A stretch of 60,807 nucleotides of DNA from a virus (taxonomy: Duplodnaviria > Caudoviricetes): positions 1 to 60,807 of the IMG/VR virus record IMGVR_UViG_3300045944_000168. One strand, 5' to 3'. Of this stretch, positions 19,186-44,873 are shown piece by piece. Numbering within the stretch: position 1 is the first letter of the stretch; every line of letters starts with the position of its first letter. Made by a program: the position numbers and the translations under genes. The notes under the pieces are model-generated. The model was not told the DNA's origin. It saw only the letters and a program-made list of their open reading frames with translations, and ran no database searches.

Positions 19186-19234
19186 AAAGGCCACGATGGT
19201 CCGAGTTTTTAGCTCGGCTGTCGTGGCCTTTTTT
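19186..19234 (+). terminator. long hairpin with U-tract
   Basis: AAGGCCACGA..CCGAG/CTCGG..TCGTGGCCTT followed by TTTT. Confidence 0.65.
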
Positions 19235-19276
19235 ATTAGCTTTGACGGAAACGCCGAAGCGCGAGAGGGAGAGACG

Positions 19277-22893: not shown

Positions 22894-23628
22894 ATGCCCA
22901 TTGGATCGTCTACGGCGTCGCTCGACGGGCAAGCGACGTTCCTCGAAATCTGTCAACAGGCTGTGCAGGAATGCCGGCTGGCCCATGGGGCGAATCGATT
23001 GCCGACTTCGGTGATGGCGCAAGTCGGGGAATTGCGGCGCCTCGTGGATTGGACGGCGGAAGCTTGGTTTGAAATTCAATCGCTGCATCCGAACTGGAAT
23101 TTTAAGCGTCATACCACCACGTTTGTGACTGTTCTGGGCCAAGCAGAATATGCGACGGTTGAATGTAATGTGGATCCCGGCACGTTTGGGCGATGGGTGC
23201 CAGACTCCTTTCGGTGTTATGAAACGGCGGTGGGCCTCTCCTCAGAGCAGCATTTGACGGACATGCCCTATGCGGCATGGCGAGACACCTATCAGTTCGG
23301 TACGATTCGGACCTCGACGGCGCGTCCAAATGTCATCACGCAACTTCCCAATAACGGCTTAGGGCTCGGGTTTGCGCCGCTCGCGGGGTACACCATTCTC
23401 GGCGATTATTTTACCGCGCCGATTCGCATGGAGACCGATGAAGAAATCCCCGAATTGCCGATTGCGCACAGCTACATGATCATTGTGTACAAGGCGATGA
23501 CGTATTACGGCGAAGCTGAGTCCGCGATGGAAGTTCTTTCGAGAGGAGAACGTGGCTATAGCCGGTTGTTGACTGCTTTGCAGGAGGATCAATTGCCGCA
23601 ACTCGTGATGGCAGGAGCGATGTGGTAA
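22894..23628 (+). CDS. head-tail adaptor
   Basis: TFLEICQ..., WNF, IVYKAM..Y; position upstream of the nozzle gene. Confidence 0.7.
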   Translation: MPIGSSTASLDGQATFLEICQQAVQECRLAHGANRLPTSVMAQVGELRRLVDWTAEAWFEIQSLHPNWNFKRHTTTFVTVLGQAEYATVECNVDPGTFGRWVPDSFRCYETAVGLSSEQHLTDMPYAAWRDTYQFGTIRTSTARPNVITQLPNNGLGLGFAPLAGYTILGDYFTAPIRMETDEEIPELPIAHSYMIIVYKAMTYYGEAESAMEVLSRGERGYSRLLTALQEDQLPQLVMAGAMW

Positions 23629-25718
23629 CGATGCCGACTGCACGCACTCCTATCCGTGCGCTTCCAACGATCGAGTATGCCACCATCGAATTTAAAGGTG
23701 GGCTTGATCAAGTCACGCCGGTTCTGCGCTTAGATCCTGGTGTGCCGCGCGATGCGCTCAATTATGAGTGTGCGATCACCGGGGGGCATACGCGAATTGG
23801 GGGATATGAGCGCTACGATGGTCGGTTCAAGCCGGCGGATGCAACGTATTCAATTATTCAGGTGACGGGGTTTGCGAATGTCCCGAGTGTGGGGCAAACC
23901 TTAACCGGACAAACAACCGGAACCACGGCGACCATTGTCGCGGTGGACGAAGCGAAAAATTATATGGCGGTGACGTTGATTGTCGGCGCGGGGTTTTCCA
24001 CGTCGGAAATCGTCAAGGTTGGCACCACTACCATTGGAGTTGCGACCATCGTGACCGTATTCGTGAATGCCCGGTCAAACTCCATTTATCTGAATGCCGC
24101 GGCCGATGTGTACCGTGCGTTGATTGCGGCGCCGCCAGGGTCCGGCGCGATCCGCGGCGTGTTTTCGATGGTCAACGGCAATGTACATGAGGTCTTTGCC
24201 TTTCGCAACAACGCCGGGGGGACCGCGTGCGTACTGCATAAAGCGTCGGTATCGGGGTGGACTGTTGTGCCGTATTTGCATGAAGTTGCATTTACCGGTG
24301 GTAGTGTTGCGCCAACTGAAGGGTTGACCATTACGCAGGGAGCGAATTCTGCCACGGTGCGACGGGTGATGGTGGAATCTGGAACCTGGGGCGGGGGGAC
24401 GGCTGCGGGACGATTGATTATCACGGCGCCGACTCCAGGGAACTTCTCAGCGGGAGCATTGACGACGGGTGGAACCTTAACGCTTGCTGGTGCGCAGACG
24501 GCTATTACGATGTTGCCAAGTGGAACGTTTGAATTTGATGTAGGAAATTTTTCCGGCGCGGCGGGCACACAGCGGATCTATGGGTGCGATGGGTCGAATC
24601 GATGCTTTGAGTTCGACGGCGTGACGTTAGCGCCGATTAAAACAGGACTGACCACTGATGCGCCGACGCATATTGCCGTGCATCAAAATCATTTATTTGT
24701 GAGTTATAAAAGCTCGGTACTGCATTCAGGGATCGGGACGCCGTTTAATTTCACGGCTCTGGCCGGCGCGGCGGAATACGGAACGAGTTTTGTCGTGACC
24801 GGATTCAAGGTGCAGCCTGGCGCGCAGGATACCCCATCGATCTTGATTACGCTGACCCATGGTCTGCGTATCATGTACGGATCGGCGGCGGCGGGATCGA
24901 ATCCGTTCCGCCTTGTGAATTTTCATACTGAGACCGGCGGGGCGGCACGGAGTCTCCAGACCCTGGATCGATCGTACTTTCTTGGGGCAACGGGGGTGCT
25001 GGATTTGGCGCGCGTTCAAGAGTTCGGCAATTTTGCGGCAGCCTCGCTCACGTTTTCCATGCAGCCCTATGTTGAATCGAAACGCACGTTGGTCTCTGCG
25101 AGTTGTACTCATAAAACCAAAAGTCAGTATCGACTGTTCTTCTCAGATGGCAGCGGCCTCTACTTGACGATTGTGAATGGAAAGCCGGTTGGCGCGATGC
25201 CTATCCTCTTTCCTAATCCTGTGACGTGCGCGTTTAATGGGCAATTGTCAAACGGGGTCGAGGTGATTTATTTCGGGTCGACGAACGGCATGGTGTACCA
25301 GTTGGAACGGGGCTCCTCGTTTGATGGAGAGGCGATTGATTACTATTTGACTCCCAATTGGGCGTCGATGAAATCGCCTCGAATTTTGAAGTCGTACCGG
25401 AAGGCGAGCCTTGAAATGTACGGAGATAGCTATGCGGAAGTGGTGTTTAGCTATCATCGTGGATACAGCTCTCCTGAATATGCTGAGCAATCAGGCATTA
25501 CGTATGCCTCGAATTTTCAAGGGGTGCCTCGGTGGGATAGCGGTATTACGTGGGATGCGTTTGTCTGGGATGGATCGACCTTGGGACCGACAGAAATTGA
25601 AGTGAGCGGGGATGGTGAAAATATTCGAGGTCGGTTAGGCGGCAGTTCTGACTACATTTATCCGTTTACAGTGAGTTCACTCACGTTTTCGTATATTCCG
25701 CGTCGAGGGATTAAATGA
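23622..25718 (+). CDS. tail nozzle / tubular protein
   Basis: GGL...P...NYE...GG.RI.GYER N-terminus; beta-propeller-like composition. Confidence 0.7.
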   Translation: MVTMPTARTPIRALPTIEYATIEFKGGLDQVTPVLRLDPGVPRDALNYECAITGGHTRIGGYERYDGRFKPADATYSIIQVTGFANVPSVGQTLTGQTTGTTATIVAVDEAKNYMAVTLIVGAGFSTSEIVKVGTTTIGVATIVTVFVNARSNSIYLNAAADVYRALIAAPPGSGAIRGVFSMVNGNVHEVFAFRNNAGGTACVLHKASVSGWTVVPYLHEVAFTGGSVAPTEGLTITQGANSATVRRVMVESGTWGGGTAAGRLIITAPTPGNFSAGALTTGGTLTLAGAQTAITMLPSGTFEFDVGNFSGAAGTQRIYGCDGSNRCFEFDGVTLAPIKTGLTTDAPTHIAVHQNHLFVSYKSSVLHSGIGTPFNFTALAGAAEYGTSFVVTGFKVQPGAQDTPSILITLTHGLRIMYGSAAAGSNPFRLVNFHTETGGAARSLQTLDRSYFLGATGVLDLARVQEFGNFAAASLTFSMQPYVESKRTLVSASCTHKTKSQYRLFFSDGSGLYLTIVNGKPVGAMPILFPNPVTCAFNGQLSNGVEVIYFGSTNGMVYQLERGSSFDGEAIDYYLTPNWASMKSPRILKSYRKASLEMYGDSYAEVVFSYHRGYSSPEYAEQSGITYASNFQGVPRWDSGITWDAFVWDGSTLGPTEIEVSGDGENIRGRLGGSSDYIYPFTVSSLTFSYIPRRGIK

Positions 25719-26638
25719 AAAAACTCGCGTTAAGTTGTGCGTTTGTGCTGGGCACGTTCTCCATCGTGTGGGGGGTGAACGAATATTATTCACACGGGAG
25801 TTTTCCGTCGCCGTCGTCGCCGGCTACATCGGCATCGATGCGGGCTGAGTTTGATTTAATTTCGTCGGGGTTTGATAAGCTTCCGGTCCTGACTGGGAAT
25901 GGTGGCAAGCTCATCCAGATCAATGGTGGTGGCACGGCGTTGTCGGTCATGCCTGGTGGGTCATTATCTTTAGGTGGCAATCTTGTCTTTAGCGGGGCCT
26001 ATAACACGACGTTTGTTCAGCAACAGACGACGACGCTGACGCTTCCTAGCACCAATGGTACGTTGGTAACGGCGCAGGGCGTTGAGACCCTCTCGAATAA
26101 AGCGCTGAACCTTTCTAATTCCACATTGACCGGTACTACAGCGCAATTCAACAACAGTTTATCGGACGGTGATTTTGCCACTTTAGGAGGCATTGAAACC
26201 CTCACGAGTAAACTGATTCAGTTTCCCGCGTTACAGAATTCTTCGTCCAACGCGAATACGTTGGACGATTACGAAGAGGGAAGTTGGACGCCCAGTGTGG
26301 GCGGCACAGCGACGTATACCACGCAGAACGGGCATTACGTCAAGGTTGGGCGCCTGGTGTGTTTGAACGGACTGCTGACGATCAATACGATTGGCACGGG
26401 AAACCCCAATACGATTTCAGGGATACCGTTTAGTCCGACCTATGACGTAGCCATTCCGATTTCGCGGACAGCGAACCTGTCAACGTCCGTGACTTCGATT
26501 TCGGGGGTCATTTTTGGTGGGTTTTTGTCGGTGGCGCTCTATTCGCGCACAGCAGCCTCAACGTCTGATGCGCAAAACAGCGTGTTAGGGAACGGCTCCT
26601 CATTTAGCTTGTCCGGCTGTTATTCCACAGCGACCTAG
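25715..26638 (+). CDS. tail fibre protein with N-terminal signal peptide
   Basis: MKKLALSCAFVLGTFSIVWG| then NEYYSH..P...MRAEFDLI..GFDKLP; C-terminal LDDYEEGSWTP...YVKVGRLV. Confidence 0.7.
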   Translation: MKKLALSCAFVLGTFSIVWGVNEYYSHGSFPSPSSPATSASMRAEFDLISSGFDKLPVLTGNGGKLIQINGGGTALSVMPGGSLSLGGNLVFSGAYNTTFVQQQTTTLTLPSTNGTLVTAQGVETLSNKALNLSNSTLTGTTAQFNNSLSDGDFATLGGIETLTSKLIQFPALQNSSSNANTLDDYEEGSWTPSVGGTATYTTQNGHYVKVGRLVCLNGLLTINTIGTGNPNTISGIPFSPTYDVAIPISRTANLSTSVTSISGVIFGGFLSVALYSRTAASTSDAQNSVLGNGSSFSLSGCYSTAT

Positions 26639-26650
26639 AAAGGATCTGGT

Positions 26651-27043
26651 ATGGCGGCGATTCAACCAACAATTACGCACAAAGTCGGCGATGAAGACGG
26701 CTCGTTGATGTTTGCGGTATGGGTGCTGTCAACGACCGATAATATCGGGATCGGGGTACCCATGGCGGAATGGATTGACCGCACCTGGCACGTCAAGATT
26801 GATGGGGGGGGATCGATTGGCGGCGGGACCGTCGCGGTTGAGACGGCGCCGTCCGATACCAATGCGGACTACGCGGCGTGCAAGAATGCGGCTGGTGGGG
26901 CAGCGATTTCGCTCACGGGTGCGACGTGCGCCACCAGTATTGAAAATGTGGGGTTTATGCGACCGAAACTGAACGGGTCAACGGGGGCGTCTGGGGTGCG
27001 TGTCACTCTTCTGGCGCGTCGTCCGAATACCATGAGGCAATAA
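26651..27043 (+). CDS. tail-region hypothetical protein
   Basis: AAGGA RBS; beta-rich. Confidence 0.6.
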   Translation: MAAIQPTITHKVGDEDGSLMFAVWVLSTTDNIGIGVPMAEWIDRTWHVKIDGGGSIGGGTVAVETAPSDTNADYAACKNAAGGAAISLTGATCATSIENVGFMRPKLNGSTGASGVRVTLLARRPNTMRQ

Positions 27044-27044
27044 G

Positions 27045-27584
27045 ATGGGAAAAACTACGGCATCAGTGGATACGCTCGATCGGCTCGCGGTGCAGCTGTC
27101 CGGGATTCAGGAAGCGGCCAAGCAGCTACGGGAAATCGGTTCGTATGACGGCGCGATCGAAGAATTGAAGAAGCAGAAGGAAACATTGCTCAAGGAGATC
27201 GAGGTTGAGCGGACGACGCTGAGCGAACTGCAGAAAACAATTCAGGCGTCGATTGCCAACGCACAACATGAGGTCGATGAGATCCGCAATACAGCCGCAA
27301 GCATCATCGACGATGCAAAAAGGCAAGCCACGAAAATCGTGCAGGATGCAGAAGCGAAGGCCGTGCAGCGTGCGGCAACAGAACGCACCAAACGGGAAGG
27401 AGATTTGTCCGGCATCCAAAAGCAGATCGATGAAGAAACGATCAAACTGAATGGGATGAAGGCGAAAACCGCACAGGCGCTTGCAAAGATTGATGCGATA
27501 GAAAAACGGGCTCAGGACGCGCAACAGGCACTTGAATCAATTCAAAATGCGGTGAAGGCGCAGGCGAAAGCGCTCGCGGAATGA
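27045..27584 (+). CDS. coiled-coil protein
   Basis: Heptad-rich in A/E/K/Q. Confidence 0.65.
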   Translation: MGKTTASVDTLDRLAVQLSGIQEAAKQLREIGSYDGAIEELKKQKETLLKEIEVERTTLSELQKTIQASIANAQHEVDEIRNTAASIIDDAKRQATKIVQDAEAKAVQRAATERTKREGDLSGIQKQIDEETIKLNGMKAKTAQALAKIDAIEKRAQDAQQALESIQNAVKAQAKALAE

Positions 27585-27593
27585 GTCCACGCC

Positions 27594-27722
27594 ATGCTGA
27601 CGCCAGCGGTAATGATCGCGCTGAAGTTGCTGCAGGGAGCCAGTAACGTTGGAGAGGGGGGCGGAGGGAGCGGAGCGTTGACGTTGTGGCGCCCCACGTG
27701 GATTCCGAGGAGACGTGGATAA
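27594..27722 (+). CDS. small tail-region peptide
   Basis: MLTPAVMIALKLLQ...WRPTWIPRRRG; fills the gap between two genes. Confidence 0.35.
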   Translation: MLTPAVMIALKLLQGASNVGEGGGGSGALTLWRPTWIPRRRG

Positions 27723-28181
27723 GTGTCGGACAATTTTCAGACCGATGCATCGGCGGGTGACGGAAAGACCTTTGCGAGTGATGAAGTTGTTGGGGGGCCG
27801 ACTGGAGGGACGTGTGATTATCCACTCTCAAAACTTGCGTTTGGTCCGCTGGATGCCGCCACGATTGTTGACGATGCGGCCGGGGCTCGATTCCCTGTTA
27901 AGGTTAGCGATGGGCTTGGTGCTGCGGCGGTTTTATCTGGACAGATTTCTCTCTCAGGAGCGGAGTCTGCGCTCTCGGCGGCTGTGGCGAGACGATTCAA
28001 GCTGAAAGCCCATGTGGACAATACTGATGTGGTGTATGTAGGGACGACCGGTGTTACCACGAGTAGTGGCTATCCGCTCTGGCCAGGAGATCCGATGGAT
28101 GTTGAGGTCTCAAATTTGAACGTCGTGCATGCCATTGTGGGATCCGGGACACAGAAGCTGAGTTATTTAGGGTTTGTGTGA
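27723..28181 (+). CDS. tail-region structural protein
   Basis: KAHVDNTDVVYVG...GYPL.PG motif. Confidence 0.6.
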   Translation: MSDNFQTDASAGDGKTFASDEVVGGPTGGTCDYPLSKLAFGPLDAATIVDDAAGARFPVKVSDGLGAAAVLSGQISLSGAESALSAAVARRFKLKAHVDNTDVVYVGTTGVTTSSGYPLWPGDPMDVEVSNLNVVHAIVGSGTQKLSYLGFV

Positions 28182-30550
28182 TGATCATTCTACTTTTCAT
28201 CCTGCTGCTTGCTCCTTCCATCGTCTTTGGACAGACCACGAACTCACGAATACAGGCCGGAGATGGAACGCCGATTACCGATACGACCAATGGTCGATTG
28301 GATGTTACGGTGCAAAATCCGGTCAATGCGGCGCAGAGCGGCACTTGGAATGTGACTAACGTCTCAGGCACGGTATCGTTGCCGACTGGCGCAGCCACAG
28401 AAACGACGTTGGGGACACGGCTGGCCGATGCGACCTTCACGGGGAGATTTCCGGCAGCCTTTGCTTCTGCCGACAACATTGCCGCTCAAACTGCAACGTT
28501 CATTCACGGGGGCTTGTTCGCCTGGGACAGTGGTGGTGGCAATTGGGATCGACTGTTGCTGACCTCGGGGGCGCTGCACGTGAATGTGCAGAATGCGAGC
28601 CTCGCTGTGACGCAATCGGGAGCATGGAGCCTTACGGCGAATGCCGGCTCCAATCTGAATACCTCAGCCTTAGCGCTCGAATCCGGCGGCAATCTGGCAG
28701 GGCTGAACGGAAAATTCCCTGCGGCGGCAGCGTTGGCCAACGATACGGCCAATCCTACCCTTTCGGCCATTGCGTCCTACAACATGTGTTTTGATGGGGC
28801 TACGTGGGACCGGTGCGCGAACATGGCCACGGACACCGATGATAATTCACTTGCGAGTGGACAGGTTACCGGGATCGACATCAGTTTGAACTACGGGTTT
28901 GATGGTACCAATTGGGTGCGGCAACGCGCGTTCTCGTCTGCAGACAATATTGCGGCACAAGTCGGGCAGTTTATGCACGGTGGATTGATGGCCTGGGATT
29001 CAGGCGGTAGCAATTGGGATCGGGTCTTGATTGCCAGCGGACGGCTGCAAGTGGATGGGTCTGGGGTGACGCAACCGATTTCTGGGACGGTGACGGTTGG
29101 TACATTCCCTGATAATGAACCGTTCAACCTTAGCCAGATTGGCGGCAATGCTGTCAGTGCTGGAGTCGGTGTATCTGGAACCGGCACGCTGCGAGTGGCG
29201 GCCATTCTTCATGATGGGACGGATACGGCGTCCGTGACGGCGGCTGGTCGGCTGGAAGTTGAGTGCGGCAATTGTTCAGGATCTGGCGCCACTCATGTAG
29301 ATGATGCTGCTTTTACCGCTACTTCTGACGATGTAGCCCCACTCGGTGCACTCTATGATACGACACCTCCGGCCATTACGGATGGGCGTGTGGGTGTTGC
29401 ACGGATGAATTCCAATCGCGCTTTGATGGTGGACGGCTCCGGCGTCACGCAACCCGTCTCTGGAACGGTGACCGTAACGGACGGCGCCGGCGCGTTGAAT
29501 GTGATTGTCGATTCAGGGTCTCTCACAGCCAACGCGGGAACGAATCTGAATACCTCGGCGCTAGCCCTGGAATCTGGCGGCAATCTGGCGACGGTGGCGG
29601 GGGTGGTGGATGCGACCGGGACGGCCGTGCCAGCCAACACGCTGTTTGTCGGGGGGACGGACGGGACCAATACTCGGGCGCTCAAGACTGATTCGAGCGG
29701 CGAGCTGCAAGTCGACGTGCTCACACTGCCCAGCGTGACGATTGGGACCTTTCCCGACAACGAACCGTTCAATGTGGCGCAAATCAATGGCTCGACGGTG
29801 CAAGTCGCGAGCAACAGCCTCAATACTACTGGCGCGGGCTTGCAAGCGCAGGCGATGGTGGGCCAGTGCGACGACACTTCGCCTACCTCCTTGACCGAGA
29901 ACCAATTCGGGCATGCGCGAATCAACTGCACGACGCACCATCAGCTTGTCGAAGTCGGCGCGGCGCTTCCGACAGGCGCCAATACCATCGGGAATGTGAA
30001 CCCAGGGACGGCAACGAACTGGGGGATCTACGCCGAAGATAACGGCGAAACAGCCGGCGGAAATCTGATGATGGCGGGCACGGTCCGCCGGGATACGGCG
30101 GCGTCCTCAGCGGGATCAACAGGCGACAACGCGACTCTGAACACGGATGCGACCGGCCTCTTGTGGACGCGCTTGATTGATCCCTGTACCTCTGCCGCAA
30201 AAACCTACTTACCGATCAATATTTCCACGGCGGCGACGACTGAAATTACGCCCTCGCTGGCCGGGGGCAGCAATCATTATTACGTGTGTTCGTTGGTGCT
30301 CATTACGGCAGCGGCGAACAACGTGGCCTTGGTGGACGATGATAGCGACGGCTGCGGGTCGGTGACCTCCGGCTTAGCTGGCGGAACCACGGCGGCGTCA
30401 GGATTCAACATGGCGGCGAATGGCGGGCTCACGTTTGGGAATGGTCTCGGGGCGGTGTTCAAGACTGGGGGCACGAATCGGGTGCTCTGTTTGGTCACCA
30501 GTGCGTCGACGCAGCTCTCCGGGACGATGACCGTGGTAGCTGCGCCGTAG
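28178..30550 (+). CDS. repetitive tail fibre-like protein with signal peptide
   Basis: IILLFILLLAPSIVFG|Q; repeated VDGSGVTQP.SGTV, ALALESGGNLA and WDR modules. Confidence 0.7.
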   Translation: MMIILLFILLLAPSIVFGQTTNSRIQAGDGTPITDTTNGRLDVTVQNPVNAAQSGTWNVTNVSGTVSLPTGAATETTLGTRLADATFTGRFPAAFASADNIAAQTATFIHGGLFAWDSGGGNWDRLLLTSGALHVNVQNASLAVTQSGAWSLTANAGSNLNTSALALESGGNLAGLNGKFPAAAALANDTANPTLSAIASYNMCFDGATWDRCANMATDTDDNSLASGQVTGIDISLNYGFDGTNWVRQRAFSSADNIAAQVGQFMHGGLMAWDSGGSNWDRVLIASGRLQVDGSGVTQPISGTVTVGTFPDNEPFNLSQIGGNAVSAGVGVSGTGTLRVAAILHDGTDTASVTAAGRLEVECGNCSGSGATHVDDAAFTATSDDVAPLGALYDTTPPAITDGRVGVARMNSNRALMVDGSGVTQPVSGTVTVTDGAGALNVIVDSGSLTANAGTNLNTSALALESGGNLATVAGVVDATGTAVPANTLFVGGTDGTNTRALKTDSSGELQVDVLTLPSVTIGTFPDNEPFNVAQINGSTVQVASNSLNTTGAGLQAQAMVGQCDDTSPTSLTENQFGHARINCTTHHQLVEVGAALPTGANTIGNVNPGTATNWGIYAEDNGETAGGNLMMAGTVRRDTAASSAGSTGDNATLNTDATGLLWTRLIDPCTSAAKTYLPINISTAATTEITPSLAGGSNHYYVCSLVLITAAANNVALVDDDSDGCGSVTSGLAGGTTAASGFNMAANGGLTFGNGLGAVFKTGGTNRVLCLVTSASTQLSGTMTVVAAP

Positions 30551-30563
30551 GAGGGGGGGATGT

Positions 30564-30809
30564 ATGCCTAATATGGCTGTGCTGGTTGCTGCGTATGTGT
30601 TTCAGAATGGAGTGTTGCAGTGTCAATTGGCGACGGTCACGGCAGACGGACAAGTTGCTGATGTGTTTTTTGCGTATGATTTCGATATGAATACTTCTCA
30701 GTTCAATGCTGAAGTCGAGGCACAGGCCAAAGCGGCTCAGGTAGCTAAAAACGGCGTTGTGTTTGTACCTAGCGATAAAATTCAGATTGCGGCAGGGAGA
30801 GTGACGTGA
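30564..30809 (+). CDS. small tail-region protein
   Basis: GGAGG RBS. Confidence 0.55.
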   Translation: MPNMAVLVAAYVFQNGVLQCQLATVTADGQVADVFFAYDFDMNTSQFNAEVEAQAKAAQVAKNGVVFVPSDKIQIAAGRVT

Positions 30810-31507
30810 AGATTCCGTTGCGAGCCTGGCATCTCTTGGTGGTGCAGCTGGTCTTAGTCGCTTCCCTGGTCTGGGCGGCGAATTCGCGGATTACCGAACT
30901 GACCGAATTGACCACCCCTGCCACTGGCGACATGCTGGAAATCGTCGATGTGTCCGATACGACGGACAACGCGGCTGGCTCCAGCCGCAAAATGCGCGTG
31001 GATCGGATCAGTGAGCAGATCTATGCCTTAGGGAGTGACTACACCAACTCGACGGCTACCGGGACGGAGATTACTGGTATTGGGCCGATGACGGCGCCAG
31101 CAGCCGGGACGTACAAGCTGGAATGTTGGCTGATTGCGCAGAACGCGACCGCCGCGAACGCCGGGGACTTTGGGGTGAACTATACCGGGACCGTCACGCA
31201 AATGTTTGCCACGTTGATTTTCCCAGATCAAGGCCAAACGGCGACGATTGGGACGGCAGACGGCACGGTCACCGGGAACGGCGGTGAGTTGATGGTGACA
31301 CACGGCTCAGTCCTGACCGAATCGACGACGACGCCGAACCTGAACATCATCGACTCCTTTGCGGGGGTGGAGGATGTCTGGATCAATATTCATGCGCTCC
31401 TCACGGTGTCGGATACGGGAGATTTTGAGATCTGGGCCGCGAGCGAATCGACCACAACCTTAACCGTGCAGTCCGGCAGTTATTGCGGTCTGCGGAGGAT
31501 TGCATGA
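30806..31507 (+). CDS. tail fibre-like protein with signal peptide
   Basis: ...LVVQLVLVASLVWA| then ANSRITELTELTTPATGDMLEIVD. Confidence 0.65.
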   Translation: MKIPLRAWHLLVVQLVLVASLVWAANSRITELTELTTPATGDMLEIVDVSDTTDNAAGSSRKMRVDRISEQIYALGSDYTNSTATGTEITGIGPMTAPAAGTYKLECWLIAQNATAANAGDFGVNYTGTVTQMFATLIFPDQGQTATIGTADGTVTGNGGELMVTHGSVLTESTTTPNLNIIDSFAGVEDVWINIHALLTVSDTGDFEIWAASESTTTLTVQSGSYCGLRRIA

Positions 31508-32337
31508 TCGGGCTGATCCTCATTGCGCTATTGTTGTGGGCTGTGCCGAGTTGGGCGGCGCTCGGCATTGGCCAGAGTGAGCTGTGCCGTGCGTTGACCA
31601 CTACCTGCACCACGACGGGGGTGACCACGACCAACGGATCCTCGTTTGTGGTGTGTGTGTCCGGAAATGGCGTGCCGAATACTCCAAGCGACAGCAAAAG
31701 CAACACGTATACCGCGATTGCTACGGAATTATTTCTTGGCGCCAACAACCGCAATCGGTGTTACCACGCACTAAATGCCACTGGTGGATCATCGCATACC
31801 TTTACCGGCTCGATCGCCAGTGGCTCAGTGGTGAGTGTAATTGCTGTGGAAATCACTACAGCGACGACGACGGCGGCGGAAAGCTCAGCCAGGCAGACCG
31901 ATAACGCCACGGCGTTTCTTTCGCCTGGAACCACGACCACGCACGCAGACTCACTGCTGATCGGGTTTCAGACGTTGGAAGGGGGGAGCGCCACCTATAC
32001 GCCGACCCATGGCAATTCGTTTACCGGTCTGGATTCAGAAACCGACGGCGATCTGTATTATCCGGTGTATTCGAGTTATCGCGCGGTATCGAGCGGAACC
32101 TATAATACAAGCATTACAGTGACAGGCTCACCGACCAATACGGGGAATTGGGTGATGGCGTACTACGAAGTGCCTCCGGTGATCTCCGGCTGTCGTTTGC
32201 TCCAAAACGGGACTGATAAACGGTTGACGCAAAACGGGACTGATGGACGGATTTTGCAAGGGGGCGGGGATTGTGAACTCGGCGGCGGCGGACCGGCGGT
32301 GGTCCCTGTCCGCATGATGATAGGTGTGGGGTTATGA
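31504..32337 (+). CDS. tail-region protein with signal peptide
   Basis: MIGLILIALLLWAVPSWA|; Thr/Ser-rich; C-terminal LQNGTD repeats. Confidence 0.65.
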   Translation: MIGLILIALLLWAVPSWAALGIGQSELCRALTTTCTTTGVTTTNGSSFVVCVSGNGVPNTPSDSKSNTYTAIATELFLGANNRNRCYHALNATGGSSHTFTGSIASGSVVSVIAVEITTATTTAAESSARQTDNATAFLSPGTTTTHADSLLIGFQTLEGGSATYTPTHGNSFTGLDSETDGDLYYPVYSSYRAVSSGTYNTSITVTGSPTNTGNWVMAYYEVPPVISGCRLLQNGTDKRLTQNGTDGRILQGGGDCELGGGGPAVVPVRMMIGVGL

Positions 32338-32338
32338 A

Positions 32339-32539
32339 ATGTCGTGGTGTCCGTGGTGCGAAACCAAGGACGATGAAGCAGACAATCGGATTTGCAAGAA
32401 CTGTCGAGAGACATTGCTGAACGAATTGAGAAAAGCGAGCCCCTGTGAGCCTGAGCGGAGTCCGTATGTGACCGTGGTGCGGTGTAATTACTGTGGGCAT
32501 CTGAAGCGGAGTGAGGAAGTGGAAGGACAGGAACGATGA
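32339..32539 (+). CDS. small zinc-finger protein
   Basis: CPWC, CKNC, CNYC. Confidence 0.5.
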   Translation: MSWCPWCETKDDEADNRICKNCRETLLNELRKASPCEPERSPYVTVVRCNYCGHLKRSEEVEGQER

Positions 32540-33930
32540 TGTCTGTACGTAATATGGCCAGATGGAGTCTTGGGGTGGTGCTGTTCTGCCTACTGCATCA
32601 GTCAGTATTTGCAATGGAGCATTATACGGAAGTCTTGAAGGATGGCAAAGGGAACTCCATTAAAGGGGCATCGATCTATGTCTATAACGCCGGCACTACT
32701 ACGCCGTCCCAAATTTATTCAGATAACGGCATTACGCCAAAGGCCAACCCGTTTCTGACCTCCAGCACGATCGATCATCCAGGAGCGTTCGATTTCTACG
32801 CAGTCGGTGGCGTCTACGATATCGTGATTATGAAAGAAGGCTATTCGTTTGATCCGCTGTTGACGAGACGAATTGCGTTGTTTGATCAAACGTCCGGGTT
32901 GGCGATTCCGTATGGACCATCATTTCCTTCCTCTCCCGCTCTGCATTCGCTGTTCATCCTGACCAGCGATAGCGGCGCGAACTGCGAACAAAGCGGGGGA
33001 GTCGTCGTGACGCTTTGTCGATGGGATGGGCTGGCCTGGGCGGTGTTCGGCGGAGGCGGAGGCGGCGGAGGCGGAGGCGGCGGAACAACCGGTTGGCCAT
33101 CGGTCTTAACGGGTGCAGCGGCTACGAGCGAAACGGCAGGGCAGTCCGTCAACATTCGAGGAATCGGTGCGCAGTCAGCCAATGGCAACGATCGCTTCCA
33201 AGGATCTGACGGAATGTTCTACGACGTGTGTGTGGTCGGGAACGTTCGGAACAATTGTAATTATTCTCGGCAACTTAATGCGGGGTTTTATTGGGAGATC
33301 AAGGACGATGATGGCAACGCGATTTTCAGGGTAACGAACGACACGCAGGAACTCACCAACGTAAGGCTGAACGGAGCGAGTTCCGGCAATACAATTATTC
33401 TCACGGAGGAAGATCATTGGGACGTAGCCGCCTGTCAGGATACTACGGCGCAGGCCATCTTCAATCTTCCAACGACGAACGCACCGACCCCCGTTTGTGA
33501 GGGGAGCAACACACGGCTGGCGACGCTCGATTTCAACGATACAACGGATCAGAGTTTCTCTGCTCGATTGATTCTTCCAACAGGGTATCAGTCTACTCCT
33601 GGCATCGATGTCCATTTCCGATGGAAGGCGGCATCGACGTCCGGCACGGTCATGTGGTGCGCGAGATTTGCTCGTGTCGCGGTTGGCTCAACCTCAGATC
33701 CATCGCTTCCATCGGAAACCACGTCGAGTTGTGTGAGTGATACGGCCAACGGTTCGACGCTCACTGAAAATACTACGACCATCGCATCCGTTGCCTGTAC
33801 GTCATGTGCAGCCGGCGATGCCGTTAATGTGGTGGTGTCTCGTGATGCGAACGGCACTTCTGGAACCGACAGTATGACTGGGGACGCTAAGCTCATGAAC
33901 TGGGGGCGAACGTGGACGGTGGCTCACTAA
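32536..33930 (+). CDS. tail fibre/spike-like protein with signal peptide
   Basis: ...LGVVLFCLLHQSVFA| then YNAGTTT...IYSDNG..PKANPF...FYA..G.YDI; poly-Gly linker. Confidence 0.7.
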   Translation: MMSVRNMARWSLGVVLFCLLHQSVFAMEHYTEVLKDGKGNSIKGASIYVYNAGTTTPSQIYSDNGITPKANPFLTSSTIDHPGAFDFYAVGGVYDIVIMKEGYSFDPLLTRRIALFDQTSGLAIPYGPSFPSSPALHSLFILTSDSGANCEQSGGVVVTLCRWDGLAWAVFGGGGGGGGGGGGTTGWPSVLTGAAATSETAGQSVNIRGIGAQSANGNDRFQGSDGMFYDVCVVGNVRNNCNYSRQLNAGFYWEIKDDDGNAIFRVTNDTQELTNVRLNGASSGNTIILTEEDHWDVAACQDTTAQAIFNLPTTNAPTPVCEGSNTRLATLDFNDTTDQSFSARLILPTGYQSTPGIDVHFRWKAASTSGTVMWCARFARVAVGSTSDPSLPSETTSSCVSDTANGSTLTENTTTIASVACTSCAAGDAVNVVVSRDANGTSGTDSMTGDAKLMNWGRTWTVAH

Positions 33931-35084
33931 TGACACGGATCATTCTCCTGTTTCTCCTGCTCTTCTGTTGGTCCAGTGCGCCACAGGCGCAGCTGGCCAA
34001 AGTGGTGTATCTCGCGCCATATGACGGAGACGGGAGCGGAGAGAACCCGTTCCGCCCACGTGGGATGGACGAACAGACCGGATGTATCGATGTGCGCAAG
34101 AATCCAGAGCAAGCGGCCGGGGTCGCGATCTGTGGACGCCAGAGTCTTCCGGCGGGAACCGGCTATATCGAACTCTCAAATCGGTTGGACGGCATCTTGA
34201 GCCGTGCACAGCGACAGGCGATCGAAAGTCGTCTATTGGACGGCGACACGCTTACGGCCACGGACGTACCGGGCATTCTCGTGGAACTCTTGATTGATCG
34301 GCGGAGCGGCGCAAATAAGCTCCGCCAGAATCGTGACGGGAAATACCACATTTATCTCGGTCGAGAAGAGGCGGTCAAGCGCACGGCCTGGCTCTACGAT
34401 CAGTGGCACGTGAACGATAACGGTCTTGTGGCTGATACCACTAATGCCGTTTTCGCGCTACTGCAACCATCGCTCGCGTGGGCGGCCTCCTATACCGAAG
34501 ATTGGGACTGTGCCGACAACGCGGCGCTCACCTGCGACCTCACATGGACGGAAGTCACCGGGACAGGGTGGGAGATTTTCTCCAACGTGGCTCGCACCCT
34601 GACGACGGCGACGGGACGGGCACGCGCAGAGAGTGCGTTAGACACGGACGATCATAAAGTCTCTGCCACCATGACGACCTTTGCCATTACTGGCGGGACG
34701 TTTGGGCGCTGCGGTGTGATGGGGCGGAAAGACGGTACGTCGGCGAATAATTCATACGTGTTCGTGGCGAACAATTTCTCTACGACTAGCGGCTTCGAGC
34801 TTGGCGTGTTTACGGGCGGCGCGATTTCGGTGATTGGCACCAGTACGCAAGATCAGGTCGATGGCGATGTCCTTACGCTCATCGTGGATGGATCGAGCAT
34901 CAGTGGGGATGTCGATACGTCGGTCATCGTCGGGCCGGTGACGGATATGGCTGTTTCTGGAAATCTGTATGGCGGTATTTATAGCAACGGCAATAACACG
35001 AACTTGGATTGCCGATTGAATAATTTTGCAACTGAAGATCTCCCTCCTCCTCCATGGAGTGGAGTGTTAAGGAGACGTGCATGA
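33930..35084 (+). CDS. tail-region protein with signal peptide and lectin-like C-terminal domain
   Basis: MTRIILLFLLLFCWSSAPQA|; beta-sandwich composition. Confidence 0.6.
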   Translation: MTRIILLFLLLFCWSSAPQAQLAKVVYLAPYDGDGSGENPFRPRGMDEQTGCIDVRKNPEQAAGVAICGRQSLPAGTGYIELSNRLDGILSRAQRQAIESRLLDGDTLTATDVPGILVELLIDRRSGANKLRQNRDGKYHIYLGREEAVKRTAWLYDQWHVNDNGLVADTTNAVFALLQPSLAWAASYTEDWDCADNAALTCDLTWTEVTGTGWEIFSNVARTLTTATGRARAESALDTDDHKVSATMTTFAITGGTFGRCGVMGRKDGTSANNSYVFVANNFSTTSGFELGVFTGGAISVIGTSTQDQVDGDVLTLIVDGSSISGDVDTSVIVGPVTDMAVSGNLYGGIYSNGNNTNLDCRLNNFATEDLPPPPWSGVLRRRA

Positions 35085-37879
35085 TGAAGCAGGCATTGTT
35101 TGCTGTGGTCTGTTTGCTCTGGCTGACAACGGCATATTGGCTCACGTTTGCGCAGGCTCCGATCGTGACGTATTGGGTTTCTCCCTCTGGGAGTGACGCG
35201 AATGCCTGTTCGGCAGTCGATGGGAGCACTGATCCCGGCGTGTATAAAGCGACGCCAAACGGGGTCATGACCTGCCTCACAGGGGGCGGGAAGGCCATTA
35301 TTCGAGCTGGAACGTATACCGGTTCGACGGCCCATTTCCGCAATCTGCCGTCCGGGACGCCAGGATCTCCCATCATTATTGAAGGCGATCCCAACGATTC
35401 TCCAGGATGTGCGTTGGCCGAAACGTGTTCAACGATTTTGCAGCCGGCCACTGGGTCTGTGAACTCCATCATTCCAGCGTCAAATTATATTATCCGCAAG
35501 TTCATTATCGATCATACGAACAACCGGAATTATCCGATCCGCATTGGTGGGAATGGAGTGACGACTTGTACTAACGTCCTGATTGAGGATGTGGTTTTGC
35601 GGAACACGCAACTGTCTGATGGTGGAGCCGGGGGAGCTACGGGGCTGATTACGGATGATGCTTGTAATTTCATTACCTTCAGACGGATGCATATTCATCA
35701 TAATGGGGAAGTCCCTGGCGGTGGCCCTGGCGGGTATTTTCAGAGTGATGATACGACGTTTGAGGATGGGTGGGTTCACCATAACTCATATATTGGGATT
35801 CAGTGCTACAGCTCTTTCCCCGGAGTTGCGAGACCGGATCGATGCAAAATCTTACGATCGATCATCGAAAACAACGATAATGCAGGAATATTTCTCGAAG
35901 GAGACGATGATGAAGCCATTGGAAATATCATCAGGAACAACGGAGGAGGAATCGATACGGGGTCAAACGGCGCGGCTAGAGCGCATATCTACAATAATGT
36001 CATCGCAAACGGTAGTATCAACATCGGCGCATCAGGGTCTGGACCTAACTCGATCATTCGAAACAATATTATGATGGGCAATGTGACGGTCAGTGCTGGC
36101 TCCACGGGGACGATTGTGTCTCACAATGCGTGCCTATCATCCAGTAATTGTGGGACGAATAAGCTGACGATTGCATCTATTGCTGATCTGACCGTTTCGT
36201 CCAGCAATTTCAGTTTGAAACCAGGTTCTGCGGCGATTAATGCGGGTATCGATGTCGGGTTGCCGTTCAACGGATCGGCTCCTGATATCGGCATGAGTGA
36301 AACCTTTCTTGTCTCGTCCGCGACGGTGGCGACCAATGTCGTTGAAGTGGTTGTCGGCATGAACCTGAATACGCCGGTTGTCCCGACCTCATCTGGTTGG
36401 TCGGTAGGCTGTACTGGAACGGGATGCGGATCTCCAGTCGTTTCGACTGTTACGCTGAAATCAGGCACCAGCGCCACGATCCAACTGGTGATTACGGGGA
36501 TTACCGGCACGAACTGTGATGCCGGCCAAACCTGGACCGTGAGCTATTCCAGTGCGACCGGCACTACGACGAATTTTACGTGGGTTGTCAATCGGCAAGC
36601 CTTGACGAGTGCTACGAATTTCGCAGTGACGAACAATTGTACGGGCGGTGGGCCACCTCCACCGGCCGGATTGCATATTTATTACAAGCTTGATGATGGG
36701 ACCGGTACGAATGCCAACGATGAGACAGCGAACAATCTGGATGGGACCTTAACGAATAGTCCAGCGTGGGTCGCGGCCCGCAATGGGCAGGGTGTGTCCA
36801 TCACGCAAGCCAGTACCCAATATATTGCCATGCCCTATGGTAGCGGGATCAATCCTCTCTCGCAATCGCTCACCGTCTCCTTCTGGGTCTATGTCACCGA
36901 TGTGAATTTCCTGGGAATTCGCTGGGGCGCGCCACTCGGCACGAATCAACGGCTGTATATCGGACAACAGAGCGGCACGTGGCGAATTGGCGTGCAGGAT
37001 TCTAACTACAGCACAGGGGCGTCAGATAAAGCAGTGGAAGTCGGCTGGACGCATCTTTGTATGACAGTGGACAACGCGACGCCTGGTAGCGGTACAGGGA
37101 CTGCGACGTTGCATGTCAATGGAGTTGCGTCAAATTCTCCGAATGCGAAGAAGACCTATACGTCCTACGCGCTAGCCGACAATTTCCGTGTGGGTGGCAT
37201 TGCAGCGAATCCTACTCCCGGAGGCATCTATGACGATGTAAAACTATGGCTTGGTATTGTTTCTTGTGCCGACGATTTTGCTTCCTCTAATCCTCCTACT
37301 TCTCCGTGGATCGGCACACTTTCGTCTGTCGCTGCGCAATTTTATATGACCAAGACAGATCCGGCCAGTGTGCTGATCCCGCTTGGGAAAAACAACGCCA
37401 ACGTGACAATCCCTCCTGGGGGGGCATGGGCCTTGTTGCTCGAAACGAAATGCGAGGCGGGTGTGAATTGTACGCCGATCGGGCAAAAGCTCTTTTATTC
37501 CTGTGCGGCCTGTCCGAGTAATGGATCGATTTTATTGATGCCGAACACGGCGACCACGGACGGCATTGAATTTTGGGGCCAGACCACGGAGCCAGGATTG
37601 TTGAGTGGAGCACCACCGAACAAACTGACGACCGGTACGTCAGTGGATGTGGCAGGCGGAACAAACCCGAATGCCGATACAATCCCTGTGGTGGGATTGA
37701 ATCAAAATCAAAGCACGGTGATTGCGTATCTTGGCCGTATTGTTCCAGGAACGCCGACCGGGCGAACGTTCTGTATGAAGCCGCGCGAGCAATCCGGGCT
37801 CGATTTAAATGGTGGCTATACGCCGCCTGGAGGAGCGTGTGTGACGGTAGGCATTCCAACTTCGACTGGCGGGCCGTGA
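35081..37879 (+). CDS. tailspike-like parallel beta-helix + LamG-like protein with signal peptide
   Basis: ...FAVVCLLWLTTAYWLTFAQA|; YWVSPSGSDAN; IxNN repeats; GSAAINAG...APDIG; YYKLDDGTG...WTHL...YDDVK. Confidence 0.75.
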   Translation: MMKQALFAVVCLLWLTTAYWLTFAQAPIVTYWVSPSGSDANACSAVDGSTDPGVYKATPNGVMTCLTGGGKAIIRAGTYTGSTAHFRNLPSGTPGSPIIIEGDPNDSPGCALAETCSTILQPATGSVNSIIPASNYIIRKFIIDHTNNRNYPIRIGGNGVTTCTNVLIEDVVLRNTQLSDGGAGGATGLITDDACNFITFRRMHIHHNGEVPGGGPGGYFQSDDTTFEDGWVHHNSYIGIQCYSSFPGVARPDRCKILRSIIENNDNAGIFLEGDDDEAIGNIIRNNGGGIDTGSNGAARAHIYNNVIANGSINIGASGSGPNSIIRNNIMMGNVTVSAGSTGTIVSHNACLSSSNCGTNKLTIASIADLTVSSSNFSLKPGSAAINAGIDVGLPFNGSAPDIGMSETFLVSSATVATNVVEVVVGMNLNTPVVPTSSGWSVGCTGTGCGSPVVSTVTLKSGTSATIQLVITGITGTNCDAGQTWTVSYSSATGTTTNFTWVVNRQALTSATNFAVTNNCTGGGPPPPAGLHIYYKLDDGTGTNANDETANNLDGTLTNSPAWVAARNGQGVSITQASTQYIAMPYGSGINPLSQSLTVSFWVYVTDVNFLGIRWGAPLGTNQRLYIGQQSGTWRIGVQDSNYSTGASDKAVEVGWTHLCMTVDNATPGSGTGTATLHVNGVASNSPNAKKTYTSYALADNFRVGGIAANPTPGGIYDDVKLWLGIVSCADDFASSNPPTSPWIGTLSSVAAQFYMTKTDPASVLIPLGKNNANVTIPPGGAWALLLETKCEAGVNCTPIGQKLFYSCAACPSNGSILLMPNTATTDGIEFWGQTTEPGLLSGAPPNKLTTGTSVDVAGGTNPNADTIPVVGLNQNQSTVIAYLGRIVPGTPTGRTFCMKPREQSGLDLNGGYTPPGGACVTVGIPTSTGGP

Positions 37880-38055
37880 TCGAATACATCTGGCAGCGTG
37901 CCTGCCCACAATGCGGGAGACACTTAGCACGCCTCTGTGAATACGGGGTTGCATGGCTCTGTAAGTGCGGATGGACCACTGCCGATGTAAGCAGAGCAAT
38001 ACGAAAGCCTGAGCACCCACAGAATGTTGAGAATGTGTTCCACGGGGAACAATGA
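37876..38055 (+). CDS. small zinc-finger protein
   Basis: GTGA-coupled; CPQC...CKCG. Confidence 0.45.
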   Translation: MIEYIWQRACPQCGRHLARLCEYGVAWLCKCGWTTADVSRAIRKPEHPQNVENVFHGEQ

Positions 38056-38477
38056 TGGTTTTAGATCTCATCAGGGTGGGCTCCTCGAATCGCGGGACAT
38101 TCGGCGTGTTGCGTCATGGCCAAGTACCGTTTGTCCTGACCCTAGAGCGACCCTGGCTGGACAATCAACAGAACGTCTCGTGTATTCCGGCTGGGCGCTA
38201 TCGCTGTCGCAAGATCCGATCGCCGAAGTTCGGGAATACCTATGAGATTTGCGATGTCCCGAACCGAACGCACGTATTATTTCACAGCGGCAATGTTATT
38301 GAGGATACCGCAGGGTGTATACTCGTCGGTGAAGAGTTCAGCGGAACCTGGGATAAACCGATGTTGGTGTCTAGTCAACGCGGGTTTGGCGAATTGATGA
38401 AGTACTTGGATGGCATGCCAGAGTTTGACGTGGTAATTCATGAGTTCTCACTCATCGAGTCGTCGGTTGCCGTATGA
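38052..38477 (+). CDS. DUF5675-family protein, putative endolysin
   Basis: TLERPW..N...SCIPAGRY...VPNR..VLFHSGN...DTAGCILVG; first gene of the lysis cassette. Confidence 0.8.
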   Translation: MMVLDLIRVGSSNRGTFGVLRHGQVPFVLTLERPWLDNQQNVSCIPAGRYRCRKIRSPKFGNTYEICDVPNRTHVLFHSGNVIEDTAGCILVGEEFSGTWDKPMLVSSQRGFGELMKYLDGMPEFDVVIHEFSLIESSVAV

Positions 38478-39852: not shown

Positions 39853-40473
39853 ATGCTGCCCGCTCTCATGGCGCTCAAACCGGCGATTAAGTACGGCGTG
39901 CCTGTCGCGATCCTGGTGGCGTTGATTGGTGGAACCAATACATGTTCTTACGTCAAGGGCAAGCGGGTAGTGCAGCAAGCCTGGGACGCCTCGATTGCAC
40001 AGCAAGCGGCGCAATCAGTCAGAGAAGTTGTGAAAGCCCAGGCGATGGAATCGGAGGTGGTGCGAGAGAGCGATGTGCGCGAGCGTGACATTAAGAGGAA
40101 GGTTGATACCATCAGAAAGAAGGTGCTTCGTGATCCACACAAACCGATTACTCTCAGCCCTGCTACTGTGCGGTTGCACGATGAGCTTCGCAGCCTGTCA
40201 AACAAAACCGACGACCGTGTGCCCGCCGCCGATCCTGGCACCGGGTCACCTGAAATACTACGAGGAGGATTGGGATCTGCCACCACTGAAGTCCTACAAG
40301 TCGAGGATGGAGAATTCGTCGAACTGACCATGGAGGAATTGAAGCAGGCGGCTACTGATTACTTTGAGAAATATGCGTTGCTGCGGAATAACTATCGAGG
40401 ACTTTCCGAATGGAACGATGGCCGAGAAGCGCTCGAAAAAGCGCGACATGGGATTGAAGAACATCATGAGTAG
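39853..40473 (+). CDS. i-spanin (Rz-like)
   Basis: N-terminal TM plus coiled coil; hosts an embedded lipoprotein gene. Confidence 0.65.
   Translation: MLPALMALKPAIKYGVPVAILVALIGGTNTCSYVKGKRVVQQAWDASIAQQAAQSVREVVKAQAMESEVVRESDVRERDIKRKVDTIRKKVLRDPHKPITLSPATVRLHDELRSLSNKTDDRVPAADPGTGSPEILRGGLGSATTEVLQVEDGEFVELTMEELKQAATDYFEKYALLRNNYRGLSEWNDGREALEKARHGIEEHHE
40130..40327 (+). CDS. o-spanin (Rz1-like lipoprotein), embedded
   Basis: +1 frame inside the Rz-like gene; NRLLSALLLCGCTMSFAAC lipobox; Pro-rich mature part. Confidence 0.65.
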   Translation: MIHTNRLLSALLLCGCTMSFAACQTKPTTVCPPPILAPGHLKYYEEDWDLPPLKSYKSRMENSSN

Positions 40474-41938: not shown

Positions 41939-41945
41939 AGGGCTG

Positions 41946-42425: not shown

Positions 42426-42452
42426 CTAACACAGTAGGAAAGGGGTGGACCC

Positions 42453-43418: not shown

Positions 43419-43427
43419 GGAGACACG

Positions 43428-44072: not shown

Positions 44073-44081
44073 GGATATAAC

Positions 44082-44867: not shown

Positions 44868-44873
44868 GGTGTT

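Follow-up and report, generated by a model that had tools for sequence, protein, structure and literature searches.

The IMG/VR virus record IMGVR_UViG_3300045944_000168 encodes, between a nozzle-type tail protein and the lysis genes, a cluster of seven proteins (P1 to P7) that each open with a predicted Sec-type signal peptide. The window, meaning the whole stretch of DNA analyzed, is the entire record of 60,807 bases on a single contig. According to the textbook rule, all parts of tailed phages fold and assemble in the cytoplasm. With somewhat better than even confidence, the receptor-binding set of this phage takes another route, being Sec-exported, cleaved, and disulfide-folded in the periplasm and joining cytoplasmic particles once the inner membrane has been opened by the holin. 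Such a pathway was proposed in an earlier reading of the letters alone (the sequence-only reading). Its export half is strongly supported by orthologues that start at the leader junction, fast-diverging leaders, even cysteine counts, and leaders that are all-or-none per phage, and the joining of the virion at lysis is plausible. What was computed here comprises the leaders and the selection acting on them, the orthology of the proteins, their cysteine and all-or-none patterns, and the folds, and from these we infer export, cleavage, disulfides, and, above all, docking.

Leader Peptides and Gene Starts of the Seven Proteins

The seven open reading frames (ORFs) are present at the starts claimed in the sequence-only reading, namely 25715, 28178, 30806, 31504, 32536, 33930, and 35081. 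They are listed below with lengths in amino acids (aa), and a slash marks the predicted cleavage point.

25715..26638, + strand: P1, a 307-aa tail fiber with a 20-aa leader (VWG/VNE) and 2 mature Cys; ATGA overlap
28178..30550, + strand: P2, 790 aa, repeat-rich, with an 18-aa leader (VFG/QTT) and 10 mature Cys; supported by homologues
30806..31507, + strand: P3, 233 aa, with a 24-aa leader (VWA/ANS) and 2 mature Cys; GTGA overlap and GGGAGAG ribosome-binding site
31504..32337, + strand: P4, 277 aa, with an 18-aa leader (SWA/ALG) and 6 mature Cys; ATGA overlap and GGAGG ribosome-binding site
32536..33930, + strand: P5, 464 aa, with a 26-aa leader (VFA/MEH) and 10 mature Cys; supported by homologues, an AF2 model, and Foldseek
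33930..35084, + strand: P6, 384 aa, with a leader of ~20 aa (conserved W-A-S-x-P-Q-A-Q) and 6 mature Cys; supported by a family alignment, AF2, and Foldseek
35081..37879, + strand: P7, 932 aa, with a leader of ~24 aa (TFA/QA) and 22 mature Cys; supported by Pfam

Leader calls were made with a crude hydrophobicity and cleavage-site heuristic of our own, combined with comparative evidence. All seven leaders have the hydrophobic character ascribed to them earlier, with an uncharged core that starts at residue 2–11 and a best 10-residue Kyte–Doolittle mean of 2.33–3.72. A site compliant with the -3/-1 rule is present in 7/7, in agreement with the small-residue sites of the sequence-only reading, except that two of these were imperfect as first read. 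Cleavage of P7 after AQA would place Pro at +1, so TFA/QA is the likelier site, and the PQA site of P6 has Pro at -3, which leaves its exact cleavage point uncertain. A positively charged n-region is found in P1 (KK), P3 (K, R), P5 (R, R), P6 (R), and P7 (K). The portal, capsid, adaptor, and nozzle proteins have no leader by the same heuristic applied to the window ORFs, as had been stated.

The leader flag was raised for 8/12 ORFs of the cluster versus 3/48 elsewhere (Fisher p = 2.6e-5). The eighth flagged cluster ORF is the 81-aa ORF at 30564, which was not accepted as leader-bearing. Those flagged outside the cluster are a likely upstream extension of a scaffold ORF at 19196, an Ala/Gly-rich internal protein at 42453, and, on the minus strand, what looks like a genuine signal peptide at 53498-53836. 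The longest ORF of the scaffold-like gene (19196-20146) opens with a hydrophobic 16-residue stretch; its PHROG match begins at residue 88, and the protein of a relative does not have this stretch. The true start of this gene is probably the ATG at codon 28.

The translational coupling described earlier was also recovered, because each of the seven starts overlaps the preceding stop, by ATGA in P1, P4, P5, and P7, by GTGA in P2 and P3, and by TAATG in P6. A GGAG-like ribosome-binding site lies upstream in 5/7 and is weak for P2 and P6. These observations bear on the possibility that the leaders are annotation artifacts, with translation starting downstream and the hydrophobic stretches either untranslated or due to chance. 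The GTG starts of P2 and P3 and the weak ribosome-binding sites of P2 and P6 would fit such an artifact. It is nevertheless barely credible, given the seven overlapping starts, the five GGAG-like sites, the enrichment of the leader flag in the cluster, and the preservation of leaders in hundreds of independently called homologues.

Expression in lysogens only had been offered as another explanation. A consensus scan, which is weak evidence, gave 9 promoter-like sites versus 12.5 expected and 19 terminator-like sites versus 17.2 expected. Lysogen-only expression is therefore unlikely, since the genes are translationally coupled in the late operon and promoter- or terminator-like sites are not in excess. 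No Dsb protein, signal peptidase, or secretion factor was found among the ORFs scanned with Pfam and PHROGs, a scan that covered the early genes only in part.

Orthologues of the P1 Fiber with and without a Leader

P1 consists of a conserved N-terminal module (residues 21-135) and a fiber-tip-like C-terminal part, and its residues 168-221 match annotated tail fibers and spikes. A P1 homologue is encoded directly after the nozzle gene in 17 IMG/VR relatives that were found through the nozzle protein. In the 11 relatives whose loci gave a tblastn match, the homology starts at residue 19-22 of P1, just past the leader. A database search with residues 21-135 returned 22 proteins, of which 20 share the N-terminal block; these 20, the window's own protein included, comprise 17 leader-bearing proteins and 3 that start with M-[TS]-N-P-[YF]-Y. 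Metagenome contigs provided 60 loci with the P1 module, including 46 without a leader, 12 with a leader, and 2 that were unclassifiable. The leaderless proteins of these contigs start with M-[STA]-N-x-[FY]-Y, and the 12 leaders end just before N-[DE]-[FY]-Y. The alignment of homologues put forward in the sequence-only reading thus gave the result anticipated there, in that 46/58 classifiable metagenomic P1 orthologues are leaderless and start at the predicted cleavage site. As the leaderless orthologues start at the P1 junction, the predicted cleavage would recreate the N-terminus of a normal post-nozzle fiber, and a free N-terminus at this position is implied to be the functional form.

In 17/17 leader-bearing database orthologues of P1, a compliant -3/-1 site lies 0-1 residues ahead of the conserved block. 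Pairwise identity among these 17 proteins averages 17% over the leader and 65% over the 60 residues that follow it. The P1 leaders diverge fast yet keep their shape, which is the way signal peptides evolve, and this comparison indicates that they are real and selected. Annotation of the orthologues agrees with a fiber. The leader-bearing orthologue P0134 matches Pfam Collar (1.4e-25) as well as 17 PHROG families, of which 15 belong to the tail category, and the leaderless orthologue P0138 matches Peptidase_S74. P1 itself, like P2 to P6, has no Pfam or PHROG family match. A complex of the nozzle (698 aa, 12-row alignment) and P1 residues 21-135 (18-row alignment) was predicted with a score of 0.02 versus a mark of 0.32, which is uninformative either way.

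The leaders might alternatively be uncleaved signal anchors that keep the proteins on the outer face of the inner membrane, where they would serve as a store to be freed by another protease at lysis or as surface proteins of infected cells or lysogens. The leaders of P2 and P4 are very hydrophobic and have no n-region, and the sites of P7 (Pro at +1) and P6 (Pro at -3) are imperfect as first read, all of which would suit an anchor. The hydrophobic cores are short, however, at 10-15 residues; the compliant site stands just before the conserved block in every P1-type leader of the database set, leaderless orthologues start at the same point, and P7 has TFA/QA as an alternative compliant site. 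Anchoring is accordingly regarded as improbable.

A similarly low probability is given to two isoforms per gene, in which a long form would be exported and a leaderless form, initiated internally close to the cleavage site, would build the virion in the cytoplasm. Codon 21 of P1 is GTG at the first mature residue and codon 27 of P5 is ATG at mature +1, and Met occurs at +1 in ~25 of the listed P5 homologues. Conversely, P2 has no in-frame ATG, GTG, or TTG between codons 3 and 40, and the only in-frame candidates of P3, P4, and P7 either fall within the leader or come 5 to 13 codons past the site. The only G-rich stretch of P1 abuts the GTG without spacing, no ribosome-binding site precedes ATG27 of P5, and neither Met nor Val is conserved at the junction of leader-bearing P1 orthologues. 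An even Cys count would, moreover, be pointless for a cytoplasmic form. A general dual-start explanation for P1, P2, P3, P4, and P7 was rejected on the internal-codon and junction evidence.

Distribution of Leaders among Related Phages

The related loci were surveyed over 12.5 kb after the fiber start. L036 and L037 duplicate L035 and were left out; L039 and L040, which are near-copies, were retained. In this survey of related genomes, which had also been suggested in the sequence-only reading, 16/18 ORFs of at least 400 aa were signal-peptide-like in the leader clade versus 0/33 in the leaderless clade, the latter figure coming from 20 loci with a leaderless fiber. For ORFs of at least 150 aa, the corresponding counts were 30/43 in leader-clade loci versus 14/115 in leaderless loci. 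The 14 signal-peptide-like ORFs of the leaderless loci are all at most 341 aa long and have spanin-like or Gly/Ala-rich N-termini. In one leaderless locus (L003), the fiber is the only large ORF between the nozzle and lysis genes. Within the loci surveyed, leaders are all-or-none per phage on large fiber-type proteins. The presence of a leader on all large fiber-type proteins or on none suggests that mutual assembly obliges these proteins to share a compartment.

When a tree was built from the N-terminal module (63 rows, 120 columns, weak support), 2 changes sufficed to explain the leader label and well-supported branches forced only 1, compared with a shuffled mean of 19.8. The Sec leader may have been gained once or twice. 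Leaders also occur on the P1 orthologue and three more proteins of the closest relative, contig C156 of G001, whose capsid protein is 77% identical. A second contig of G001 carries a P2-like stretch (L024, G001:C56:5035-8610). This stretch lies in a 292-aa open frame, is 39% identical across query residues 450-617, and may be a fragment of another phage or a bacterial gene.

Cysteine Parity and Predicted Oxidative Folding

The mature forms of P1 to P7 contain 2, 10, 2, 6, 10, 6, and 22 Cys, respectively, and the count is even in 7/7. The other proteins of the window include 12 with an even count, 18 with an odd count, and 6 with zero Cys (Fisher p = 0.008 versus P1 to P7), where the rows of this and the following parity counts are related sequences and p-values overstate their independence. 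Leader-bearing P2 homologues (n=99) gave 96 even, 3 odd, and 0 zero counts, and P2 homologues with non-hydrophobic N-termini (n=11) gave 3 even, 6 odd, and 2 zero. Among leader-bearing P5 homologues (n=122), 116 counts were even and 6 odd. In the P6 family, the Cys pairs 194/202 and 261/361 are each lost together, in different members. Cys counts span 2 to 34, which indicates that gains and losses come in pairs. Together with the evidence on the leaders, these findings strongly support export and oxidative (disulfide) folding.

Families and Folds of P2 to P7

P2 has >1785 homologues, and 99 of the best 120 pass a strict leader test. The remaining 21 of these 120 include 8 with weaker or truncated leaders, 2 fragments, and 11 with non-hydrophobic N-termini. 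The protein combines a conserved N-terminal module with a conserved C-terminal domain of ~180 aa, and in one subgroup the mature N-terminus is 53-71% identical while leaders and distal parts differ. The N-terminal domains of the leaderless P2 homologues P0049, P0053, P0074, P0084, P0085, P0087, and P0098 have no Pfam or PHROG match, save that P0085 was searched against PHROGs only. These domains are at most candidate virion anchors. Pattern scans of IMG/VR with P2 and P5 gave no relatives.

P5 has 2052 homologues, with leaders in 122 of the 150 listed. Its model (AF2 pLDDT 89) has a beta domain at the N-terminus that a 12-Gly linker connects to a C-terminal beta-sandwich resembling a carbohydrate-binding module (CBM). 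Foldseek matches of this sandwich include CBM61, CBM11, and CBM35, Bdellovibrio fiber tips, and the lambda tail tip. The 12-Gly run lies within residues ~174-199 (window 33060-33110), where the AF2 pLDDT is <50, and its repeated GGN codons could slip.

A leader is present in 12/13 members of the P6 family, and the sole leaderless member, P0155, starts at the first conserved block. The C-terminal part of P6 is a ConA-like lectin domain (AF2 pLDDT 75) for which Foldseek returned CBM66, legume-lectin-like, and mycobacteriophage receptor-binding domains. A nearly invariant Arg-Arg(-Arg) stands a few residues before the stop in this family (RRR in P6 itself), and P3 ends with ...LRRIA. P7 matches Pfam Laminin_G_3 (ConA-like) with 41.2 bits versus a cut-off of 27.6, and a right-handed Beta_helix at 25.7 bits (E = 9.8e-6), which is borderline, just below the cut-off of 25.9. 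P3 and P7 gave no tblastn match in cultured phages, and no homologues of P3 to P7 were found in the 60 metagenomic P1 loci. The comparative data cover P1, P2, P5, and P6. P2 to P7 are best explained as six accessory glycan-binding or glycan-cutting proteins.

Proposed Mechanism and Docking

In the proposed mechanism, the seven proteins would be translated late, coupled to the tail genes, and carried across the inner membrane by the host Sec system. Signal peptidase I would cut the leader, after which P1 would have the N-terminus of its leaderless orthologues. P1 to P7 would then fold and oligomerize with disulfide bonds in the oxidizing periplasm, while fiberless, DNA-filled particles build up in the cytoplasm. 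The holin breach of the inner membrane would mix both pools, and the N-terminal module of P1 would dock on the nozzle or adaptor, either before the outer membrane is ruptured by the spanin or just afterwards. For the whole clade, the chances are about even that assembly is split over two compartments in this way, with fiberless particles in the cytoplasm and a disulfide-bonded receptor-binding set in the periplasm that meet at the holin breach.

Docking is favored because P1 keeps the N-terminal module of a post-nozzle fiber, because no leaderless receptor-binding candidate was found elsewhere in the genome (among the window ORFs scanned with Pfam and PHROGs, no other fiber or spike was detected), and because leader-bearing proteins of Cellulophaga phage phi18:3 are annotated as virion components from tandem mass spectrometry (MS/MS). 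It is also suggested by the all-or-none leader pattern.

The evidence for export could be accepted without docking. P1 to P7 might be exported and never bound to the virion, acting as secreted glycan-binding or glycan-cutting proteins on the envelope or matrix of the producing cell. By destroying or masking receptors, they might prevent the trapping of progeny on debris; they might also loosen capsule or exopolysaccharide ahead of release or keep out superinfecting phages. Adsorption would in that case depend on the nozzle or an unrecognized protein. The signal peptides and the disulfide signature speak for export only; P5, P6, and P7 resemble lectins, carbohydrate-binding modules, and a beta-helix enzyme, which bacteria secrete too, and the best-conserved part of P2 is C-terminal. 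The placement of P1 to P7 in virions is itself inferred. On the other side, P1 is an orthologue of a post-nozzle fiber and keeps its N-terminal module at 65% identity across the leader clade, a module that a free protein would not need. The missing leaderless fiber or spike candidate, the all-or-none leaders with 0/33 large ORFs flagged in the leaderless-fiber loci, and the phi18:3 proteins likewise argue against free proteins throughout. This explanation is therefore considered rather unlikely for the set as a whole. The reading as released depolymerases or decoys, which the sequence-only reading had listed, is comparatively most plausible for P5 to P7.

Several points weigh against export followed by docking at lysis, besides the relatedness of the parity rows. 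The presence of P1 to P7 in virions, their export, and their cleavage are predictions from sequence comparisons. P2 and P4 have no positive n-region, although most P2 homologues do have one. P1 orthologues, leader-bearing ones included, contain 0 to 5 Cys with no consistent even count, and disulfides therefore cannot be the universal reason for the leader. The C-terminal domain is the best-conserved part of P2, which is unusual for an N-terminally anchored receptor-binding protein. Met at mature +1 (P5 residue 27) is kept in ~25 of the 150 listed P5 homologues and may be a relic of an ancestral start codon or a second initiation site; together with the GTG at codon 21 of P1, it makes leaderless isoforms possible for P1 and P5 only. 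Periplasmic fibers that meet cytoplasmic particles only at lysis would cost efficiency. To our knowledge, no such route has been described for tailed phages.

Genome Organization and Host

The window is best explained as the complete-looking genome of a podovirus distantly related to N4-type phages. It encodes replication genes, adaptor-like and nozzle-like tail proteins, the seven-protein cluster, a lysis region, and internal virion proteins. PHROG matches identify a large terminase (phrog_2), a portal (phrog_332/1216), and an HK97-type major capsid protein (phrog_1357), and a 2868-aa giant with matches to phrog_14770/616 is among the internal virion proteins. No cultured or deposited phage record exceeds 45% identity to the capsid protein, whose more distant relatives include N4-type phages. 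In MW202426, the nozzle orthologue is annotated as 'phage stabilization protein' and placed after a 'head completion adaptor'. The remaining features of the cluster and its surroundings are as follows.

23622..25718, + strand: nozzle-type tail protein, leaderless, the presumed docking partner of P1; 17 IMG/VR relatives at 36-48% identity
26651-27043, + strand: leaderless small ORF, 130 aa, with weak PHROG matches only; homologue upstream of the nozzle in L006
27045-27584, + strand: leaderless small ORF, 179 aa, helical, 0 Cys, with weak PHROG matches only
27723-28181, + strand: leaderless small ORF, 152 aa, with weak PHROG matches only
30564..30809, + strand: 81-aa ORF between P2 and P3, not counted as leader-bearing; N-terminus moderately hydrophobic, without n- or c-region
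32324..32539, + strand: leaderless 71-aa ORF, zinc-ribbon-like, with 7 Cys in CxxC pairs; overlaps the 3' end of P4 and the 5' end of P5
38052..40473, + strand: lysis region with a DUF5675 protein, small membrane proteins, and a spanin (Pfam, PHROG)
38052-38477, + strand: DUF5675 protein (Pfam DUF5675)
39853-40473, + strand: Rz-like spanin (phrog_312)
40073-40327, + strand: Rz1-like lipoprotein ORF, embedded in the spanin gene in another frame, with a lipobox-like L-C-G-C and a Pro-rich stretch
55145-56392, - strand: integrase

The phage is probably podovirus-like and temperate, with a two-membrane host. A periplasm and two membranes are indicated for the host because an Rz/Rz1-type spanin is present. 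A capsid match was found in 3/301 genomes of Nitrospiraceae, 2 of the 3 being weak, which is a weak hint at the host. A search for tRNA genes in the window found none.

Five proteins encoded after the lysis region (window 40913-53480), including the 2868-aa giant, were inspected for Cys. Four of them have 0 Cys, and the 214-aa protein (43428-44072) has 1. A GNAT-like ORF among the post-lysis proteins (41946-42425) also has 1 Cys, compared with 2-22 in the exported-type proteins P1 to P7. The near-absence of Cys in the post-lysis proteins fits an unfolded passage through the tail. Near the integrase, a moron-like 112-aa ORF (53498-53836, - strand) has a classical signal peptide (~AMA/QVS) and no Pfam or PHROG match.

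Significance of the Proposed Periplasmic Fiber Maturation

If the proposed route is true, fibers can use disulfide bonds, which would make them sturdier outside the cell, and completion of the particle must be coupled to lysis. The dependency factors of the phage would then include Sec, signal peptidase, and Dsb, which might also offer routes of resistance. Receptor-binding proteins would escape annotation pipelines in which a signal peptide leads to rejection as 'not structural', and their recombinant production would call for expression in the periplasm. The P1 family lends itself to a clean test, since it contains orthologous fibers with and without a leader whose junction falls at the same residue.

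Comparison with Known Systems

In a literature search with most subscription journals outside its reach, the accessible parts of the sources contained no description of Sec-exported tail fibers of tailed phages (PMC5723332, PMC12210884, PMC12923769, PMC3517404). A comparable case comes from a phage with no sequence similarity to the cluster. In Cellulophaga phage phi18:3 (NC_021794), gp085, gp086, and gp087 are consecutive, large proteins with signal-peptide-like leaders that end in a small residue before Gln, and in the record they are listed as virion or tail proteins, an assignment 'based on experimental MS/MS proteomics analysis'. Nine other phi18:3 proteins annotated from mass spectrometry were checked and have no such leader, with gp120 opening in a moderately hydrophobic, Ala/Gly-rich stretch. 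The three proteins differ from P1 to P7 in sequence (best blastp E = 0.084), in their Bacteroidota host, and in their few Cys (0, 1, and 3).

Small envelope and lysis proteins with export signals, such as lambda Lom and Bor, spanins, and SAR endolysins, are familiar among late genes. The cluster resembles them in having export signals in the late region, and the window has its own Rz/Rz1-like pair. It differs in that the signals are predicted on seven large fiber-, lectin-, and beta-helix-type proteins, including the orthologue of a post-nozzle fiber. Unlike Lom-like morons, the genes of P1 to P7 are coupled to the preceding genes, and promoter- or terminator-like sites are not in excess. Among bacterial proteins, the C-terminal beta-sandwich of P5 resembles the Bdellovibrio adhesin tips Bd1399 and Bd2133 (PDB 8okh, 8ond; Foldseek E = 3e-4 to 9e-4), a weak match with a query-normalized TM-score of 0.13-0.17.

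The coat proteins pIII and pVIII of Inoviridae have cleavable signal peptides and mature on the periplasmic side, and the particles are extruded through the envelope. Virion proteins with cleavable signal peptides are thus an established arrangement that P1 to P7 are predicted to share. The difference is that the HK97-type capsid of this phage, with its terminase and portal, must be filled in the cytoplasm.

The N-terminally anchored fibers and tailspikes of podoviruses, of the P22 gp9 and T7 gp17 type, fold and attach in the cytoplasm. P1 is similar to them in its post-nozzle position, its conserved N-terminal module, and its exchangeable distal domains, as well as in orthologues with Collar or Peptidase_S74 and PHROG tail-fiber matches. 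P2 and P5 share the same layout of a conserved module right after the leader and a variable remainder. The cluster departs from this type in two respects, as the anchor module of P1 is preceded by a Sec-type leader and the accessory proteins have paired Cys.

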